From: a virus
DNA length: 15,153 bases
Virus genome (UHGV): UHGV-0197611
Reading direction: 5' to 3' (one strand)
Each line of letters starts with the position of its first letter. The first letter of the stretch is position 1. Positions 3,800 to 12,390 of the stretch are shown one piece after another. A program made the position numbers and the translations under genes. The notes below the pieces were generated by a model. It was not told the origin of the DNA, searched no databases, and saw nothing but the letters and a program-made list of their open reading frames with translations.

Positions 3800-5006
3800 C
3801 TTTTCTCCCTTTAATTTCCACAGTCTGTTTCCATGCCTGGCTGAACTCATCACCACCTTCACGCGGCGGCATACCCTCACGCTCACGGGCTTCGTTCGGA
3901 TTCATGATCCCGTTCTTAATCCCTTTCTCATACGTGGCATAACGTTCGGTGGGTGTGGCGCGTAATAAATCGGCTGAATCAAACTCAACCAGATAACGGG
4001 TACCAGGTACGGGAGAAGCCACCAGCAAAGCGGCCTTGATTTGCTGTTCGAAGTTCGCCAGCCACGGGCGCATTGTCATGGTCAGAAACGCGCGGCTTGC
4101 CTCGCTGAAATTGCTGTAGGTGCTGTTGCTGTATTCCTGCAGAAAAATAGGCGATACGTTGAACATGCGGGCGATGTCTTCAATGGAGAAGCGACGGGAG
4201 GCCAGCCATTCCGCATCCTGGTTACTCATTCCCAGTTGCCTGTAATCCATGCCCCCTTCAAGGATTGGCGTTTTTCCGGCATTTTTCGCCCCCTTGTAGC
4301 GTTCCAGAGCATCCAATGCCTGTTTACCTTTCACGCCGTCCAGCCATTCGCCTGACGTGATAATCCCTGCCGCCATCATGCCATCTTTCATAATGCTGGC
4401 TCCGTGGCGCTGTTGAGCAAGGCCAAGCCCAAGTGCCTCACGGCAAATCGTGACGGGGGAGCGCCCCAGAAAGCCATCATCCGAGGCATAGCGGAGATGC
4501 AGAACTTCTTCCTGTAAATACGTGCGCACCGTTCCTGTATAGGGTTCGGTGATGGTATAGCGGTATTTGTGTGCGCCTGTGCGTTCCGGTACAACACACC
4601 CCGGCGCATAAGGATGAAGTGATTTTGGCTGCCCGTCCTGCCCCCACTCAATAACCGCATAGGCGTTACCGTTCAGCAGGCAGTGACGCATCATTGTGCG
4701 TTTAAACTGGTAAGGTGTCTGGCACGAATTAGGCTGCTCATTCAGCAGAATATCTACCGGGTGACTGTCCAGCCATTCCCGCGCCTCCCTGCCCTTGTCA
4801 TTACGTACCAGATACAGATAACACGGCATCGTGGCCACCGCCTCAGCGATGACAGAAACCGCATTCATCACTGCAGGCAATGATTCAGCCGTCCCGGCAG
4901 AAACATATTCTCCGGATCCGGTATTCGGTACGCCGGACAGCGCCAGAAAATCATCAATGGACAGGTTACGCTGCTCGCTTTTTTTACGACTAAAAGGCCA
5001 CCACAT
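3792..5006 (-). CDS. Portal protein (HK97 family-like)
   Basis: About 400-aa product downstream of the prohead protease and upstream of the connector. Start chosen at ATG 5006-5004 (MWWPF...), 1 nt after the protease TGA stop. The track's TTG start at 5096 would overlap the protease gene by 90 nt. Confidence 0.85.
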   Translation of the reverse strand: MWWPFSRKKSEQRNLSIDDFLALSGVPNTGSGEYVSAGTAESLPAVMNAVSVIAEAVATMPCYLYLVRNDKGREAREWLDSHPVDILLNEQPNSCQTPYQFKRTMMRHCLLNGNAYAVIEWGQDGQPKSLHPYAPGCVVPERTGAHKYRYTITEPYTGTVRTYLQEEVLHLRYASDDGFLGRSPVTICREALGLGLAQQRHGASIMKDGMMAAGIITSGEWLDGVKGKQALDALERYKGAKNAGKTPILEGGMDYRQLGMSNQDAEWLASRRFSIEDIARMFNVSPIFLQEYSNSTYSNFSEASRAFLTMTMRPWLANFEQQIKAALLVASPVPGTRYLVEFDSADLLRATPTERYATYEKGIKNGIMNPNEAREREGMPPREGGDEFSQAWKQTVEIKGRKDE

Positions 5007-7039: not shown

Positions 7040-7786
7040 ATGGAGATTCAAGTGACAAAAGAAATTCTTGCTGTTCCTGGGATGCGACCATCCCCATTGT
7101 TCAAAAGGACTTATAAATTAGTTCGGGAGATTGACGAAAGATTAACCAAACTGATTCATAGATGGCGATTTTTCAATGCAGGCCCCCCCATGAAAGTTAC
7201 TGCATATGATGGAACAGAAATATGCTATCAAGGTTTGGCATTTAAAGGTACTCCCGTTCAAATTTTTTGGAATGGTTTTATCGATCCTTACATTGAAAAT
7301 AACTCAGAAATTGTTTTAGAGCAGACCTCCGCGTTAGCAATTGAATGTCAATTCTCAATAGAGGAGTCAATCGAGGAGGCTAAATTACTATTACTTGTGA
7401 TGATTCGCAGGCTTTACTATGAAATGGCCGAAACAGATAAAATATTAAGAGGTGATGGGTTTTCCTTCCCAGAAAAAAAAGACGTTAGTGGTTATATTGA
7501 AAGTATCTCTCAAAAAATCATAGAACATGCTGAAATTGAAAAGCTAAAAAAAACGCATCCAAAACAAAACATATTCAACATAGCTACTGTAAATAGCCAA
7601 TACGTACAACTTGGTACAAATAACAATATTAATATACAAGAGCTCTCTGAGTTCTTCTCAAAAATTGCATCAACTGGTGAAAAAGAAATTATTACTCTCT
7701 CAAAAAACCTTCTTAAGAAGGCCTACTCAAAAAACTTACTGAGTAAAGAAAACTATGAAGCTCTAATATCAAACCTTAACACATAG
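7040..7786 (+). CDS. Hypothetical protein (248 aa), first gene of AT-rich plus-strand cassette
   Basis: Long ORF in a markedly AT-rich segment on the opposite strand to all flanking modules. Its C-terminal region (FNIATVNSQYVQLGTNNNINI...KNLLKK) is paralogous to the C-terminus of the next gene. No strong SD upstream. Confidence 0.72.
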   Translation: MEIQVTKEILAVPGMRPSPLFKRTYKLVREIDERLTKLIHRWRFFNAGPPMKVTAYDGTEICYQGLAFKGTPVQIFWNGFIDPYIENNSEIVLEQTSALAIECQFSIEESIEEAKLLLLVMIRRLYYEMAETDKILRGDGFSFPEKKDVSGYIESISQKIIEHAEIEKLKKTHPKQNIFNIATVNSQYVQLGTNNNINIQELSEFFSKIASTGEKEIITLSKNLLKKAYSKNLLSKENYEALISNLNT

Positions 7787-7845: not shown

Positions 7846-8355
7846 ATGGATCTTAACGTCATGGCATATCCAGAAAAATTCACAATCGCAGGAGTTGAAT
7901 ACAAGGGGAAAAGAAACTCAGCTGAAAAAAAAGTGCTAATCCCTTATACTGAAGAACCAGATATTAATATTGGAGATGAAATCACTCAAAAACTAGGGAA
8001 GGGGGAAATAATATTAAAAGTAATTGATATGTCATTTTTACCAGGAGGTACACTCAATGTTGGTACTAATCACCCTCACATGCTTACATTAAAAGTCGAG
8101 AATCTGACTGCTAATGAACATAAACCAAAACAATCTAGCCAAAATACATTTAACATTGGTAACATATCCGGTACACAGGTTCAACTCGGTGAGCATAACA
8201 ATCTTATTGTAAATCTCAGCATAACTGAACTTGTTGAAAAAGTTTCTCAATCACAAGATCCTCAGGCAAAAAATTTGCTTAAGGATTTACTAAATAATAG
8301 TACGGTAGCCAGTCTCGTTGGTGCTGGTGCGTCCGCCTTGTTAACAATGCTTTGA
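7846..8355 (+). CDS. Hypothetical protein (169 aa), second cassette gene; short hydrophobic small-residue C-terminal tail
   Basis: ATG at 7846 preceded by GAGGAG (7833-7838). Shares the module FNIGNISGTQVQLGEHNNLIV...KNLLKDLL with the upstream protein. Ends in TVASLVGAGASALLTML. Followed immediately by a strong hairpin. Confidence 0.8.
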   Translation: MDLNVMAYPEKFTIAGVEYKGKRNSAEKKVLIPYTEEPDINIGDEITQKLGKGEIILKVIDMSFLPGGTLNVGTNHPHMLTLKVENLTANEHKPKQSSQNTFNIGNISGTQVQLGEHNNLIVNLSITELVEKVSQSQDPQAKNLLKDLLNNSTVASLVGAGASALLTML

Positions 8356-8356
8356 G

Positions 8357-8388
8357 TATATGGCCTGGCAAAGAGCCAGGCCATATAA
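8357..8388. terminator. Bidirectional hairpin between convergent genes
   Basis: Perfect 13-bp stem TATATGGCCTGGC / GCCAGGCCATATA with 6-nt loop, 2 nt after the plus-strand stop (8353-8355) and 1 nt before the minus-strand stop (8390-8392). No long T-tract on either side. Confidence 0.55.
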
Positions 8389-8389
8389 T

Positions 8390-8650
8390 TCATTTCTCAC
8401 TCATCCAATTAGGAGGTAGTGGCATTTTTTTCCTTAAAACCTGCAAATGCTCAATCAAAACATTAACCTGCTCTTGATTTGTTGCAAGGATTTCATCTGA
8501 TAGCGTGCTACGAATAAAATCATGATGGTCAATCCACAGTAAACCACCATTTGCAAGGGCCTGACGGTACTGAGTGGTAGGCATTGAAGCAATATCATGA
8601 AGTCCGAATTGATCAAAATAATTGTTTATTTCATGCGTCAGAATCGGCAT
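8390..8650 (-). CDS. Hypothetical protein (86 aa)
   Basis: ATG at 8650-8648 with AGGAAG RBS. AT-rich. Located between the iteron origin and the cassette, convergent with the cassette. A tandem TTTATCTAA x2 (8664-8681) lies in its 5' leader. Confidence 0.6.
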   Translation of the reverse strand: MPILTHEINNYFDQFGLHDIASMPTTQYRQALANGGLLWIDHHDFIRSTLSDEILATNQEQVNVLIEHLQVLRKKMPLPPNWMSEK

Positions 8651-8792
8651 TATTTCTTCCTATTTTATCTAATTTATCTAATTTGTAGTCATTTTTAACC
8701 AGTATTCGGTCAAATCAAGCGCGTGTTTTTGTGTGCTTTACTGTCATAGTCTTTATCTCACAGCAGTAAATTAAAATTTTTGCGTTTTAACC

Positions 8793-9020
8793 CTTCACCT
8801 GTTCACCTTTTGATATTTTATCTTTTAATTCATAAGGTTAAGGGGTGAACAGTTTCACAAAAACTATTCACCAACTGTTCACCACTGTTCACCCTTGAAG
8901 CTCAATAAACAATCAAAAAGGTGAACAGTGAATAGTTTGGTGAACAGTTCATAAATAACTGTTCACCCTATAATATACTGATATAAAAGATATTTATGAC
9001 AGGGTGAACAGTGGTGAACA
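8793..9020. repeat. Iteron array / putative origin of replication (P4 type I-like octamer TGTTCACC)
   Basis: Nine perfect copies of TGTTCACC/GGTGAACA in both orientations (plus strand 8800, 8876, 8886, 8960; complement 8844, 8920, 8939, 9003, 9013), plus degenerate copies (8793, 8865, 8928), interspersed with AT-rich spacers and lying immediately 3' of the replication gene. Confidence 0.8.
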
Positions 9021-9034
9021 GTTATTCCATAAGT

Positions 9035-10852
9035 TTAATTTTTGCTATCGTCATTAGTGACCGATACACATGATGGCATCCAGTCTTCTGATTCCTCCGT
9101 CAGTGTCACGTTTGAACGCAAACCGTGCTTCGTTTTCCGTTTCATATACTCCCTGCCATATTCCGCCATTGCCCCCGGCATATCTTTACCGAAGCGCGTC
9201 AGTGTTACAGGTTTACCAAACCCATGTGCCCTCATATAAGCCAGATAGGCATGATAGAGATATCTGCGCGGGCTGAATGGCACAATTTCAGCATTACCCA
9301 CTAACAGGCCATCACACATTACCGACGCCATGAGATAGCCGCAGAAGTCCACCAGCGAATCCCCCTCTCGCTTTATCGCCAGTGCTTCTTCAGATTTCTG
9401 CTGCTCATATAACAGGCGTCTGGCTTCGTCCTGGTTAGCAAACCGTGTAAGCAGATGGCGAATCACTACCGCCAGCTCACCTTCTATTTTTTCCGCCAGC
9501 ATCGGATCACGTTCGTTCTCCGGTACAACTTCCGAAAAATTGAATATCACCCGACGACGTGAGATCCCCCCGCTGCGGTCACTGAATGACATGGCGTTAT
9601 TGTTAACCGCCAGCACTACTGCCGGAATACGCGTTGAGTAGGGAGCTTTGTGTTTCGGGTCAATTGCCACCTTGTCACCGCCTGTAATGGCCTTAATCCC
9701 TGCCCCATCACCAGCGTAGCGGGTCATATCCGGCATGATAATCAGAGAAAAGCCAACCACTAACGCACGTTCCCTTGCATCTTCCAGCGCCTTCATGCTT
9801 GCTGATACTGTATTAGCCTTACCCGCCAGCATGGTGCAAATCTCCGCCATTACGCTTTTACCGCTTCCACCAGGACCAGTTACCTCAATGAATAACTGCC
9901 AGTCATATCTGTTCGCCAGCACCATGAATAATGCCGCCAGTACACGATCCGCTTTGCGATCATTCTCAGCCACCGAACGGTGCAACCACTTCCAGAAATT
10001 CGGCGCATGTGTTGCCAGCGTTTCCCCCTCTGCTGGTGGGCTGAAAGGTAATTCACTGGCAATTAACAACCAGTCGTTTTTGTTATGCTCCCGAAAATTA
10101 CCTGTTCTGGTATCAAATACCCCGTTACTGAATCCAATCAAGTTACGGGCTGTATTCCCCATTACAGGCAAACTTAACTTCATGGTATCGACCGCTGATT
10201 TAATAGCGTTCTGTGAATAGCTGATCTCCGCATCAATGAAAATCTGCGCCATAGCACGCTGTAACTCTTTATCCTGAACCGGCTCCCATACAACGCCGTT
10301 GTAATGGTGAACAGTGTCAGAGTCAGCATGAATCGCCAGTTCACCACCATAATGTGCCAGGAGAACTTCGCCGCGTTGACTTGCTCCCATCTGGTTAAGC
10401 GCCAGTGATGAAGCGTTATCGTCTTTTACCCGCTCTTTTTTCTTTACAGGCAGTTCAACAACCTTTTTCTTTTCCGCCAGCTCTCCCCGCTCACGCTCCA
10501 GATATTCGCGCCAGTTCTCCCGTTTCTGGCTGTGCATTCCTTCAGGGTAATAATCAGCATCCCTGACACCTGCCGCTGCCAGTTTCTGCCCGATGGTATT
10601 AACAAGTCCCGGACGCAATAACCCCGCCTGATAGAGACGCACACGATAGCGTCCGTCTGGTACGATTTGCAGGTTGTCCAGTTCGGCAAGTTGTTGCTCT
10701 CCAAGCCAGACAGGTGGCACGTTATCGCCAGCCAGTCGCCCGTCCTGTTCCTGCCACTGCTTCGCATGTGCCCACGCATCACTACCCGCAAAAATGATGA
10801 CTTCCGTCATTTTGTCACGCGGTTGGTGTTTTAAATTTGGCGCTTTTTTCAT
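9035..10852 (-). CDS. Replication protein, P4-family primase C-terminal (D5_N-like) + SF3 helicase (alpha-like)
   Basis: 605 aa from ATG 10852-10850, which overlaps the upstream gene's stop (ATGA). The track start is an upstream GTG. Walker A GPGGSGKS and Walker B-like SLIIMPD. Iterons lie directly downstream. Confidence 0.88.
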   Translation of the reverse strand: MKKAPNLKHQPRDKMTEVIIFAGSDAWAHAKQWQEQDGRLAGDNVPPVWLGEQQLAELDNLQIVPDGRYRVRLYQAGLLRPGLVNTIGQKLAAAGVRDADYYPEGMHSQKRENWREYLERERGELAEKKKVVELPVKKKERVKDDNASSLALNQMGASQRGEVLLAHYGGELAIHADSDTVHHYNGVVWEPVQDKELQRAMAQIFIDAEISYSQNAIKSAVDTMKLSLPVMGNTARNLIGFSNGVFDTRTGNFREHNKNDWLLIASELPFSPPAEGETLATHAPNFWKWLHRSVAENDRKADRVLAALFMVLANRYDWQLFIEVTGPGGSGKSVMAEICTMLAGKANTVSASMKALEDARERALVVGFSLIIMPDMTRYAGDGAGIKAITGGDKVAIDPKHKAPYSTRIPAVVLAVNNNAMSFSDRSGGISRRRVIFNFSEVVPENERDPMLAEKIEGELAVVIRHLLTRFANQDEARRLLYEQQKSEEALAIKREGDSLVDFCGYLMASVMCDGLLVGNAEIVPFSPRRYLYHAYLAYMRAHGFGKPVTLTRFGKDMPGAMAEYGREYMKRKTKHGLRSNVTLTEESEDWMPSCVSVTNDDSKN

Positions 10853-11148
10853 TTCTGCTCTCTCCACGCGGCAATCATGTTTTTCAGTTCCTGTAGTTTT
10901 TTATCCACATCCACACGTGACACATGGTTATTTCTGGAAGGCGGGATTTCCCGCCCGAATCTGCAAATAAAGATCTCCACGTTCAGCGAGCTATGAAATG
11001 AATAGCCATCACGAATAAAGTACACACGGTCAAACATTATCGATTTTACTGTTACTCTGTTGCCGTTCTTATCCCGATAAATAGCGCCGGGGATAATTTT
11101 GGGATGTGCATAACCGCTGGCAGTCAAGCCAGATAAATACGTTCTCAT
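10849..11148 (-). CDS. Hypothetical protein (99 aa), translationally coupled to the replication gene
   Basis: ATG at 11148-11146. Stop overlaps the primase start. No recognisable motif. Confidence 0.6.
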   Translation of the reverse strand: MRTYLSGLTASGYAHPKIIPGAIYRDKNGNRVTVKSIMFDRVYFIRDGYSFHSSLNVEIFICRFGREIPPSRNNHVSRVDVDKKLQELKNMIAAWREQK

Positions 11149-11154
11149 GATTAT

Positions 11155-11475
11155 TTATCCCCGATTTGAATCAGTATTCGCTTTCTTTATGGCATTTAAT
11201 GCATCTGTGGCATTTTCAATGGTGCACCGTAACGAAATATCAAAATGTCCAAGCATTGCCAGTAACAAACCGATATTACCCATATCAATGCGCATGGCCT
11301 TTGCGTCATATTCCTCATTTTCTGACGCATGCCACATCAGGCTACCAATTGACGCAACAGCCATTGATATATTGTCAGTAGCCCCATCCGCAGCGGAATA
11401 AACCTTTTTAGCAATATCATGCTCACAGTTAAAATGCGGATTAATCAGGTACTGGTAATTTGACATATCAGGCAT
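11155..11475 (-). CDS. Hypothetical protein (106 aa)
   Basis: ATG at 11475-11473 preceded by strong SD AAGGAGGT with 5-nt spacing. Overlaps the stop of the upstream small ORF. Confidence 0.65.
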   Translation of the reverse strand: MPDMSNYQYLINPHFNCEHDIAKKVYSAADGATDNISMAVASIGSLMWHASENEEYDAKAMRIDMGNIGLLLAMLGHFDISLRCTIENATDALNAIKKANTDSNRG

Positions 11476-11671
11476 GGCGCACCTCCTTGCGGATACGGGC
11501 GGTGAACACCATCACGCAGCCAGCTGGGGATTGCTGGCGGGCTTCCTGTTCACTGGTGGCCACGATGGTAATCACACGCGGTTTTGCGGCGCTCAGGGCG
11601 ATAAAACGCCAGGTGAATTTATTCAGGTTGTGCGAATCCCGCCCTCGCGGGTGTGTGGTATGATTTAACAT
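11468..11671 (-). CDS. Small protein (67 aa), possibly Icd-like (host cell-division inhibitor family of P4-like elements)
   Basis: ATG at 11671-11669 with GAGGT RBS. Product MLNHTTHPRGRDSHNLNKFTWRFIALSAAKPRVITIVATSEQEARQQ... resembles my recollection of Icd-like proteins; not verified. It is the C-terminal part of an otherwise implausible 304-aa ORF. Confidence 0.45.
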   Translation of the reverse strand: MLNHTTHPRGRDSHNLNKFTWRFIALSAAKPRVITIVATSEQEARQQSPAGCVMVFTARIRKEVRHA

Positions 11672-11752
11672 AGCTACCTCGATAATCTTGCTATCGTTGG
11701 TGGTTAGACGCCCTACATGTGTTGCGAGCACTGCGGGGCGTTGCTCTTTTAG

Positions 11753-11798
11753 GTGTATTTCACCTTTGCTTTTTAATTTACTCACTGGTGAAATACAC
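11753..11798. promoter_or_regulatory. 12-bp perfect inverted repeat GTGTATTTCACC / GGTGAAATACAC with 22-bp spacer in the divergent regulatory region
   Basis: Read directly. Arms resemble the ori octamer (TTCACC core). Followed on the plus strand by T-runs and a TATACT -10-like hexamer (11829-11834) upstream of the small plus-strand gene. Confidence 0.5.
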
Positions 11799-11864
11799 TT
11801 CAAGCCTTTTTTTATCATTTTTTTTGCGTATACTGACATACACCAATTTTTAGGAGATCCAGAA

Positions 11865-12044
11865 ATGGCAACTGGTGCAAAGAACGCAAAATCACAAATG
11901 ACAACTGTCAGAATCCCACATGAAGTAATGGATGATATTGAGCAACTTAAAGAACCTGGCGAAAGTACCGCTGGTTTTTTAGTTACTGCCGCAAAAGGCG
12001 AGATCAAACGCCGCCAGCGGCGCAAGGCCAAAGAGCAGGAGTAA
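11865..12044 (+). CDS. Small charged protein (59 aa), candidate DNA-binding regulator
   Basis: ATG at 11865 preceded by AGGAG (11853-11857). Product MATGAKNAKSQMTTVRIPHEVMDDIEQLKEPGE...KRRQRRKAKEQE. Transcribed divergently from the replication operon. Confidence 0.5.
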   Translation: MATGAKNAKSQMTTVRIPHEVMDDIEQLKEPGESTAGFLVTAAKGEIKRRQRRKAKEQE

Positions 12045-12101
12045 CCATCACCAGCGCCGTGATGCGGTGAACTGTGGCGCACAGGGTTACAGGTATCTAC
12101 G

Positions 12102-12281
12102 ATGACTGACAAATTATTAAAGAAATTATCCTCATCTAGGAAAAAACAACGCAAAAATGCGGTAAACGAACATGAACCGGAGAGATTCGCACCATGTGCG
12201 TTTGTCCTTGAGAAGTACCTTAAAGAGTATTCCAGGAAAATATGCTCATTGCAGGCATGGCAACAAATCGATCCAGACTGA
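12102..12281 (+). CDS. Small hypothetical protein (59 aa)
   Basis: ORF not in the supplied track (below the size cut-off), found by reading the sequence: MTDKLLKKLSSSRKKQRKNAVNEHEPERF... Weak RBS. Lies between the upstream small gene and a plus-strand terminator. Confidence 0.3.
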   Translation: MTDKLLKKLSSSRKKQRKNAVNEHEPERFAPCAFVLEKYLKEYSRKICSLQAWQQIDPD

Positions 12282-12345
12282 TAGCATTGCCCACCAGCCG
12301 ACAACCTGGTATTCTGGATATGCTCAAGTTTAGTGTTATGCCACT

Positions 12346-12373
12346 GGCGACCGCCCCCGGTCGCCTTTGTTTT
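12346..12373 (+). terminator. Rho-independent terminator of the plus-strand small-gene unit
   Basis: Stem GGCGACCG-(CCCC)-CGGTCGCC followed by TTTGTTTT, located just before the convergent alpA stop. Confidence 0.65.
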
Positions 12374-12390
12374 ATATACCATAACTCACC

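Follow-up and report, generated by a model that had tools for sequence, protein, structure and literature searches.

The stretch of DNA analysed here (15,153 nt, referred to below as the window) contains a replication gene, rep, which is followed on its 3' side by an intergenic segment crowded with copies of one octamer. The locus raises the question whether these repeats form the replication origin of the element and, if so, where the primers come from, as a preliminary description of the segment had remarked that the adjacent replication protein appears to lack an obvious primase domain.

The octamer array behind rep

The preliminary description had counted nine perfect and several degenerate octamers in mixed orientation, separated by AT-rich spacers and lying directly 3' of the replication gene. 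An exact search of both strands bears this out. The window contains 11 perfect copies of TGTTCACC; nine of them fall inside 8792-9020, where three degenerate copies bring the number of sites to 12. Dinucleotide-preserving shuffling of the whole window (200 shuffles) gave 0.54 ± 0.72 copies with a maximum of 4, and when the 384-nt intergenic segment alone was shuffled 20,000 times, no more than 2 copies arose versus the 9 observed, so that a chance origin of the repeats is excluded. The sites and parts of the array are the following.

8792..9020: whole iteron array, putative origin, with 12 sites (nine perfect, three degenerate) in a dyad-symmetric layout that is kept in relatives
8800(+), 8844(-), 8876(+), 8886(+), 8920(-), 8939(-), 8960(+), 9003(-), 9013(-): perfect TGTTCACC sites (exact search)
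8792-8799, plus strand: degenerate site CCTTCACC
8865-8872, plus strand: degenerate site TATTCACC
8927-8934, minus strand: degenerate site TATTCACT, with a 1-nt deletion compared to its relatives
8792..8893: left half-array, inverted copy of a P4-ori-like unit (sites 8792, 8800, 8844, 8865, 8876, 8886)
8920..9020: right half-array, P4-ori-like unit (sites 8920, 8927, 8939, 8960, 9003, 9013)
8808..8843: left AT-rich spacer, 36 bp, AT 0.81, candidate melting region
8968..9002: right AT-rich spacer, 35 bp, AT 0.80, candidate melting region
8894..8919: AT-rich centre, 26 bp, AT 0.73, between the inverted half-arrays

Read in the direction of rep, the array consists of two sites, a 35-bp spacer, one opposed site, three further sites and the 26-bp centre, after which the same arrangement returns as a mirror image. 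The two half-arrays are 71% identical to each other as an inverted repeat, and the AT content of the spacers and the centre (0.73-0.81) exceeds that of the whole window (0.53). The distances from site start to site start are 9, 44, 21, 11, 10, 34, 9, 10, 21, 43 and 10 bp; if 8792 and 8927 are taken as the starts of two of the degenerate copies, distances 1-2 become 8 and 44 and distances 7-8 become 7 and 12. Most of them are near whole helical turns. The conserved core of the iteron is somewhat longer than the octamer (ACTGTTCACC), TTCACC being the part that is invariant across relatives. The first site lies 14 nt past the rep stop codon (9035-9037, minus strand), and at its other end the array is separated by ~140 nt from the next minus-strand gene (8390-8650).

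No RefSeq annotation covers the array, an Rfam scan of the window at gathering thresholds gave no match, and a full-text literature search for the octamer retrieved only unrelated primer matches. DnaA boxes, the IHF consensus and GATC are absent from the array, and neither a sigma-70-like promoter nor a terminator is predicted in the intergenic segment; the missing promoter, DnaA box, IHF site and GATC cluster count against reading the array as an origin. Isolated TGTTCACC copies are present at 10306-10313 (inside rep) and at 11501-11508 (inside the icd-like gene), a number close to chance level, and a copy with one mismatch at 11547-11554 lies outside the array as well. A second iteron cluster is found nowhere in the island.

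The island and its replication protein

The window is 100% identical to the chromosome of E. coli MS6198, where the whole island is inserted between fis and yhdJ. It encodes, in this order, an integrase, a 245-aa ORF, an AlpA-family regulator, YlcI/YnfO, an icd-like gene, a 106-aa ORF, a DUF4222 protein, Rep (followed by the array), an 86-aa ORF, two low-GC genes on the opposite strand, and a module consisting of an HK97-type major capsid protein, prohead protease, portal, connector, HNH, TerS and TerL. The RefSeq annotation of the identical island in MS6198 and Pfam reveal no tail or lysis genes. No hijacking gene of the sid, delta, psu or epsilon type is annotated in the island either; sid, delta and psu are, together with a Cnr homologue, P4 features that it is missing. 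This gene content fits the definition of capsid-forming PICIs as set out in the methods of a recent preprint (bioRxiv 10.1101/2025.02.11.637232); the island also has the hallmarks of PICIs and cf-PICIs in general, which are elements of ~10-18 kb with int, alpA, rep and a packaging module but neither tail nor lysis genes. The first reading of the locus is thereby refined: the element is a capsid-forming PICI (cf-PICI) and not a P4-type satellite. The gene rep, its domains and its two neighbours are the following.

9035..10852, minus strand: rep, 605 aa, P4 alpha-like SF3 helicase and putative origin-binding protein (RefSeq WP_001553503.1, 'DNA primase family protein')
10478..10852, minus strand: N-terminal alpha/beta domain of Rep, ~120-125 aa, in place of the zinc ribbon and Toprim primase of P4 alpha
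9554..10369, minus strand: D5_N and DUF5906, SF3 helicase/ATPase core with the Walker A motif GPGGSGKS (Pfam)
9074..9364, minus strand: C-terminal winged-helix origin-binding domain, aa ~497-593 (phmmer versus PDB 1KA8; Pfam Pox_D5)
10849..11148, minus strand: DUF4222 gene, its stop codon overlapping with the start codon of rep (ATGA); EcCICFT073 shares this order of genes
8390..8650, minus strand: 86-aa gene (phrog_1957), which bounds the intergenic segment after the array

The proposed length of 605 aa agrees with a start at the ATG at 10852 and with the PGAP call, and the assignment of the protein to the P4 family stands. Rep is 48% identical to residues 290-771 of P4 alpha (E 1e-163), a region comprising both helicase and origin-binding domain. 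The C-terminus of Rep matches PDB 1KA8, the origin-binding domain of P4 alpha (E 1.8e-24), and the helicase core matches the chain labelled 'DNA primase' in PDB 7OLA (E 2.4e-10), which we take to be the Pri-Rep of a staphylococcal island.

Two apparent counterparts among the neighbouring genes were rejected. Upstream of rep, the 106-aa ORF shows no homology to P4 ORF106/Cnr, and the 86-aa gene is unrelated to the 85-aa gene that follows the origin of EcCICFT073. The low-GC genes between the origin and the capsid module (7040-7786 and 7846-8355, both plus strand; GC 0.30-0.38 versus ~0.52) match phrog_5789, the former with the C-terminus of its product and the latter with the whole of it, and neither has a match in Pfam or PADLOC. 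They are probably accessory cargo, possibly with a function in defence or interference. Between the convergent genes 7846-8355 (+) and 8390-8650 (-), a strong hairpin with a 13-bp stem and a T-rich tail (8357-8387) is likely a bidirectional terminator. On the other side of rep, ~900 nt between its upstream genes and alpA (11468-12390) contain the icd-like gene (11468-11671, minus strand), the divergent YlcI/YnfO gene (11865-12044, plus strand) and a long, implausible 304-aa ORF. The icd-like/YlcI pair recurs in EcCICFT073, and this region is probably a regulatory switch region.

Relationship to the origins of P4 and of other PICIs

The preliminary description had identified the octamer with the type 1 iteron of P4 ori and crr, and this is how it is annotated in GenBank X51522. 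This entry lists 16 P4 'ori type 1 repeats'. All six repeats in ori (9310-9413) are identical to TGTTCACC, and the ten in crr (4291-4590) comprise five perfect and five degenerate copies. In the P4 ori, three sites and an opposed one are followed by an AT-rich spacer of 35 bp and two more sites, as in each half-array of the island, and the right half-array has the same orientation relative to rep as P4 ori has relative to alpha. When aligned with P4 ori (9306-9417), the right half-array is 74% and the left one (reverse complement) 72% identical, compared with 55 ± 3% (maximum 64%) for shuffled controls; with the crr unit, the half-arrays reach only 54-66%. The type-2 repeats of P4 are absent from the island array. 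Furthermore, P4 possesses two clusters, ori and crr, which are ~4.7 kb apart and are both required in cis, whereas the island has a single cluster composed of two inverted ori-like units.

In P4, crr is a cis-acting accessory region, and initiation takes place at the distant ori. Like the array, crr is located directly 3' of an alpha-type gene and carries the same octamer in both orientations; as this cluster directly 3' of alpha is crr, position alone would suggest that the array is crr-like. However, crr consists of two direct 120-bp repeats, each with the order + + spacer - - +, unlike the island array. The array is located at the position of P4 crr but is built like the P4 ori core, duplicated as an inverted repeat, which refines the first reading in a second respect. 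At an Erwinia rhapontici locus encoding a long P4-type alpha, the 450 bp downstream of the gene are free of TGTTCACC, and nine copies lie elsewhere in the 9.4-kb locus; therefore, the placement of the iteron clusters relative to the gene varies among P4-like elements.

PICI origins have been described as lying directly 3' of rep and consisting of iteron sets on both sides of an AT-rich region (PMC6092414); their iterons are given there in a figure only and are not spelled out in the text. In the same study, a pri-rep/ori segment of EcCICFT073 maintained a temperature-sensitive plasmid in DH5alpha in a rep-dependent manner in the pKO3-blue assay (Fillol-Salom et al. 2018, PMC6092414), and deletion of ori in this assay lowered colony formation but did not abolish it, an observation that counts against the origin reading. 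The Pri-Rep of EcCICFT073 (584 aa) is 49% identical to the window Rep from end to end, with the N-terminal domain included. The 288-bp segment downstream of pri-rep contains the same 12-site dyad, but its iteron is TGTCTACC/TATCTACC instead of TGTTCACC, and the wing of its DNA-binding domain differs from that of the window Rep in step with the iteron. The upstream gene order (alpA, YlcI/YnfO, icd-like, DUF4222, rep) is identical in both islands. EcCICFT073 belongs to the classical PICIs and has SSB and PerC downstream, whereas the island studied here is capsid-forming and has its own capsid and terminase genes.

An array directly 3' of rep is also present in a classical PICI of O157 strains (likewise with SSB and PerC downstream), where it is 79.7% identical and stands beside a 608-aa Rep, and in 9 other relatives. 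A 16.5-kb sequence deposited as 'Escherichia phage vB_KppS-Ant' (LR881103.1) has an array with 74.7% identity. The module is therefore common to classical and capsid-forming PICIs. Like a cf-PICI, LR881103.1 carries int, rep, the same origin array, capsid, protease and portal genes, and one of its edges contains the terminal part of a tape-measure gene; this deposited phage is probably a satellite. In the SaPIs of Staphylococcus aureus, the initiator Rep is likewise a self-loading helicase; its homology is distant, neither the iterons nor the DNA-binding domain are related, and a primase is present in SaPIs, either separately or as a fusion.

The array or a close relative of it is found in 689 of 5,426 complete E. 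coli genomes (~13%), always unannotated and always beside a gene for a 'DNA primase family protein'. In an alignment of the array with 8-9 relatives from Escherichia, Klebsiella, Raoultella, Pluralibacter, Kluyvera and Citrobacter, 75% of the iteron columns are invariant versus 34% of the spacer columns within the array. At 72 related loci from other species, short Reps (~570-605 aa) keep the place and layout of the array, and the iteron word varies by lineage (TGTTCACC, TGTCTACC, CTGTCCGC/CTGTCCAC, TCTCTACC, TGTGCACC). Among relatives with 89-93% identical helicase cores, the DNA-binding domain is 76-81% identical to that of the window Rep if the iteron is TGTTCACC, and 63-66% identical if it is TGTCTACC. 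The differences concentrate in the wing of the winged helix, where the TGTCTACC group has a 5-residue insertion; one relative with a 93% identical helicase carries 5 additional aa in the wing and uses another iteron. P4 alpha and the window Rep share the iteron and the wing motif (KRHTKQG-IQTNLTL in P4, KRKTKHG-LRSNVTL in the window Rep; common pattern KR.TK.G....N.TL), yet their DNA-binding domains are only 46% identical. This covariation of iteron and wing is the pattern expected if the C-terminal domain of Rep reads the octamers. The C-terminal domain of P4 alpha is well documented to bind the type 1 repeats, as reported by Ziegelin and colleagues in 1993 and in the paper on the 1KA8 structure.

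Initiation, priming and implications

The origin suggested in the preliminary description is backed by position, architecture, conservation, covariation in the relatives and the tested homologous module of EcCICFT073. On this comparative basis, we consider the array to be the replication origin of the cf-PICI, an allelic variant of the known PICI module 'pri-rep then ori', with a probability of about 0.85. It is improbable that the array is instead a crr-like enhancer acting in cis, after the precedent of P4, where alpha at crr loops to a separate ori. The array does occupy the exact position of P4 crr, directly 3' of an alpha-like gene, and its best alignment to the crr unit (66%) just exceeds the maximum of the shuffled controls (64%). 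However, the island has two isolated octamers only and no second cluster, the half-arrays are nearer to the P4 ori core (72-74%) than to crr, and in EcCICFT073 rep together with the downstream segment sufficed for plasmid replication.

Even less probable is a mainly regulatory or titrating function, be it as a Rep operator acting on read-through, as a site for copy-number 'handcuffing' or as a decoy for a P4-like alpha. The location of the array between rep and a co-directional next gene, with no predicted terminator, would suit such a role; the iteron is identical to that of P4, and P4-like elements are reported from almost half of the E. coli genomes (PMC8628076). Nevertheless, there is no promoter-like site in or beside the array, and its AT-rich spacers and dyad are kept where the iteron departs from that of P4, which fits an origin better than an anti-P4 decoy; moreover, regulatory roles are compatible with origin function. 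The least probable explanation is a structural palindrome (a cruciform, or a hairpin for packaging, recombination or a single-strand origin) or a chance repeat unrelated to Rep: the halves are 71% complementary and the 246-nt segment folds as ssDNA at -48 kcal/mol, far better than shuffles (z = -7.8), but such a fold follows automatically from the inversion of the iterons, the octamers are conserved while the spacer pairing is not, the TerS/TerL/HNH module is at the far end of the island, where a cos site is expected, and the homologous domain of P4 is known to bind this octamer.

If the array is the origin, replication could proceed as follows. Upon induction, Rep would be made from the leftward operon (icd-like, orf106, DUF4222, rep), and the C-terminal winged helix of Rep would bind the 12 TGTTCACC-type sites, as suggested by P4 biochemistry and by the covariation. 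The dyad geometry would suit a head-to-head pair of SF3 rings that melt the AT-rich DNA and unwind it in both directions, as happens at other SF3 origins. Primers would be supplied by the host, most simply by DnaG, or else the N-terminal domain would provide them by serving as an adaptor or by an activity that has escaped recognition. The amplified DNA would then enter the island's own capsids via its own terminase, as its gene content implies.

With no primase recognisable in Rep, either the host or the N-terminal domain must account for the primers. P4 alpha has a zinc ribbon and a Toprim primase (Zn_Ribbon_Prim, residues 30-66, and Toprim_3, residues 210-299, in Pfam); Rep has neither, even at E <= 5, in line with what the preliminary description had noticed. 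Residues 1 to ~125 of Rep have no match in Pfam, a comparison of the N-terminal domain with the P4 Toprim region by hhalign detected no profile similarity (probability 0.3%), and a Foldseek search with it against the PDB returned nothing significant. The Toprim fold is characterised by a conserved Glu and a DxD metal-binding motif. At these positions Rep has IFAG and YQAG, each nearly invariant, and the acidic E/DxD residues are absent; the domain is therefore possibly a degenerate, catalytically dead Toprim-like domain, judged by these motif positions. It is rare, with only 119 clusters in a profile search of 1.84 billion representative proteins. In the full-length proteins among the matches listed, it stands at the extreme N-terminus and is fused to three unrelated ATPase/helicase modules, D5_N/DUF5906 (SF3), AAA_25 and DUF927. 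The N-terminal position is where such initiators commonly have a primase.

No primase-like ORF was found elsewhere in the island. A helper-phage primase is probably not needed, because the Rep of EcCICFT073, which has the same N-terminal domain, replicated a plasmid in DH5alpha without a phage. By analogy with this plasmid, we infer that the host would be the most economical source of primers. Some E. coli genomes encode chimeric proteins, two of them matching Rep aa 1-146, in which the N-terminus of Rep is joined to the C-terminal half of an SSB. As ssb follows the origin in classical PICIs, these chimeras point to deletions from rep across the origin into ssb, and islands encoding them would be origin-less and decayed.

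As to its class, the locus is a known one, a PICI/cf-PICI origin, and not a new element type. Three features of it are new, albeit modest: the iteron and the half-origin layout are exactly those of P4 ori; the ori unit is duplicated in inverse orientation into one compact origin, versus the split ori/crr of P4; and a recurrent N-terminal module replaces the primase. The closeness of one PICI Rep/ori allele to P4 qualifies the published view that PICI origins are unlike other replicons and that Pri-Rep is distant from alpha.

Two questions are raised by these findings, namely whether P4 and PICIs interact through their shared iterons and how primers are supplied to a primase-less SF3 initiator. 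Cross-talk between P4 and the island is conceivable, as both have the same iteron and the P4-type recognition wing. Two linked ideas follow, which we put forward as tentative and rather unlikely: P4-like satellites and islands present in one cell could cross-fire or titrate each other's initiators, and the N-terminal domain could substitute for a primase, either as an adaptor bringing host DnaG to a helicase other than DnaB or as a cryptic primase. If true, such an initiator interaction between satellites would be one not previously described. Furthermore, the analysis locates the putative origin of a common replication module of E. coli PICIs and cf-PICIs, which aids annotation, the engineering of delivery vehicles and the design of minimal replicons.
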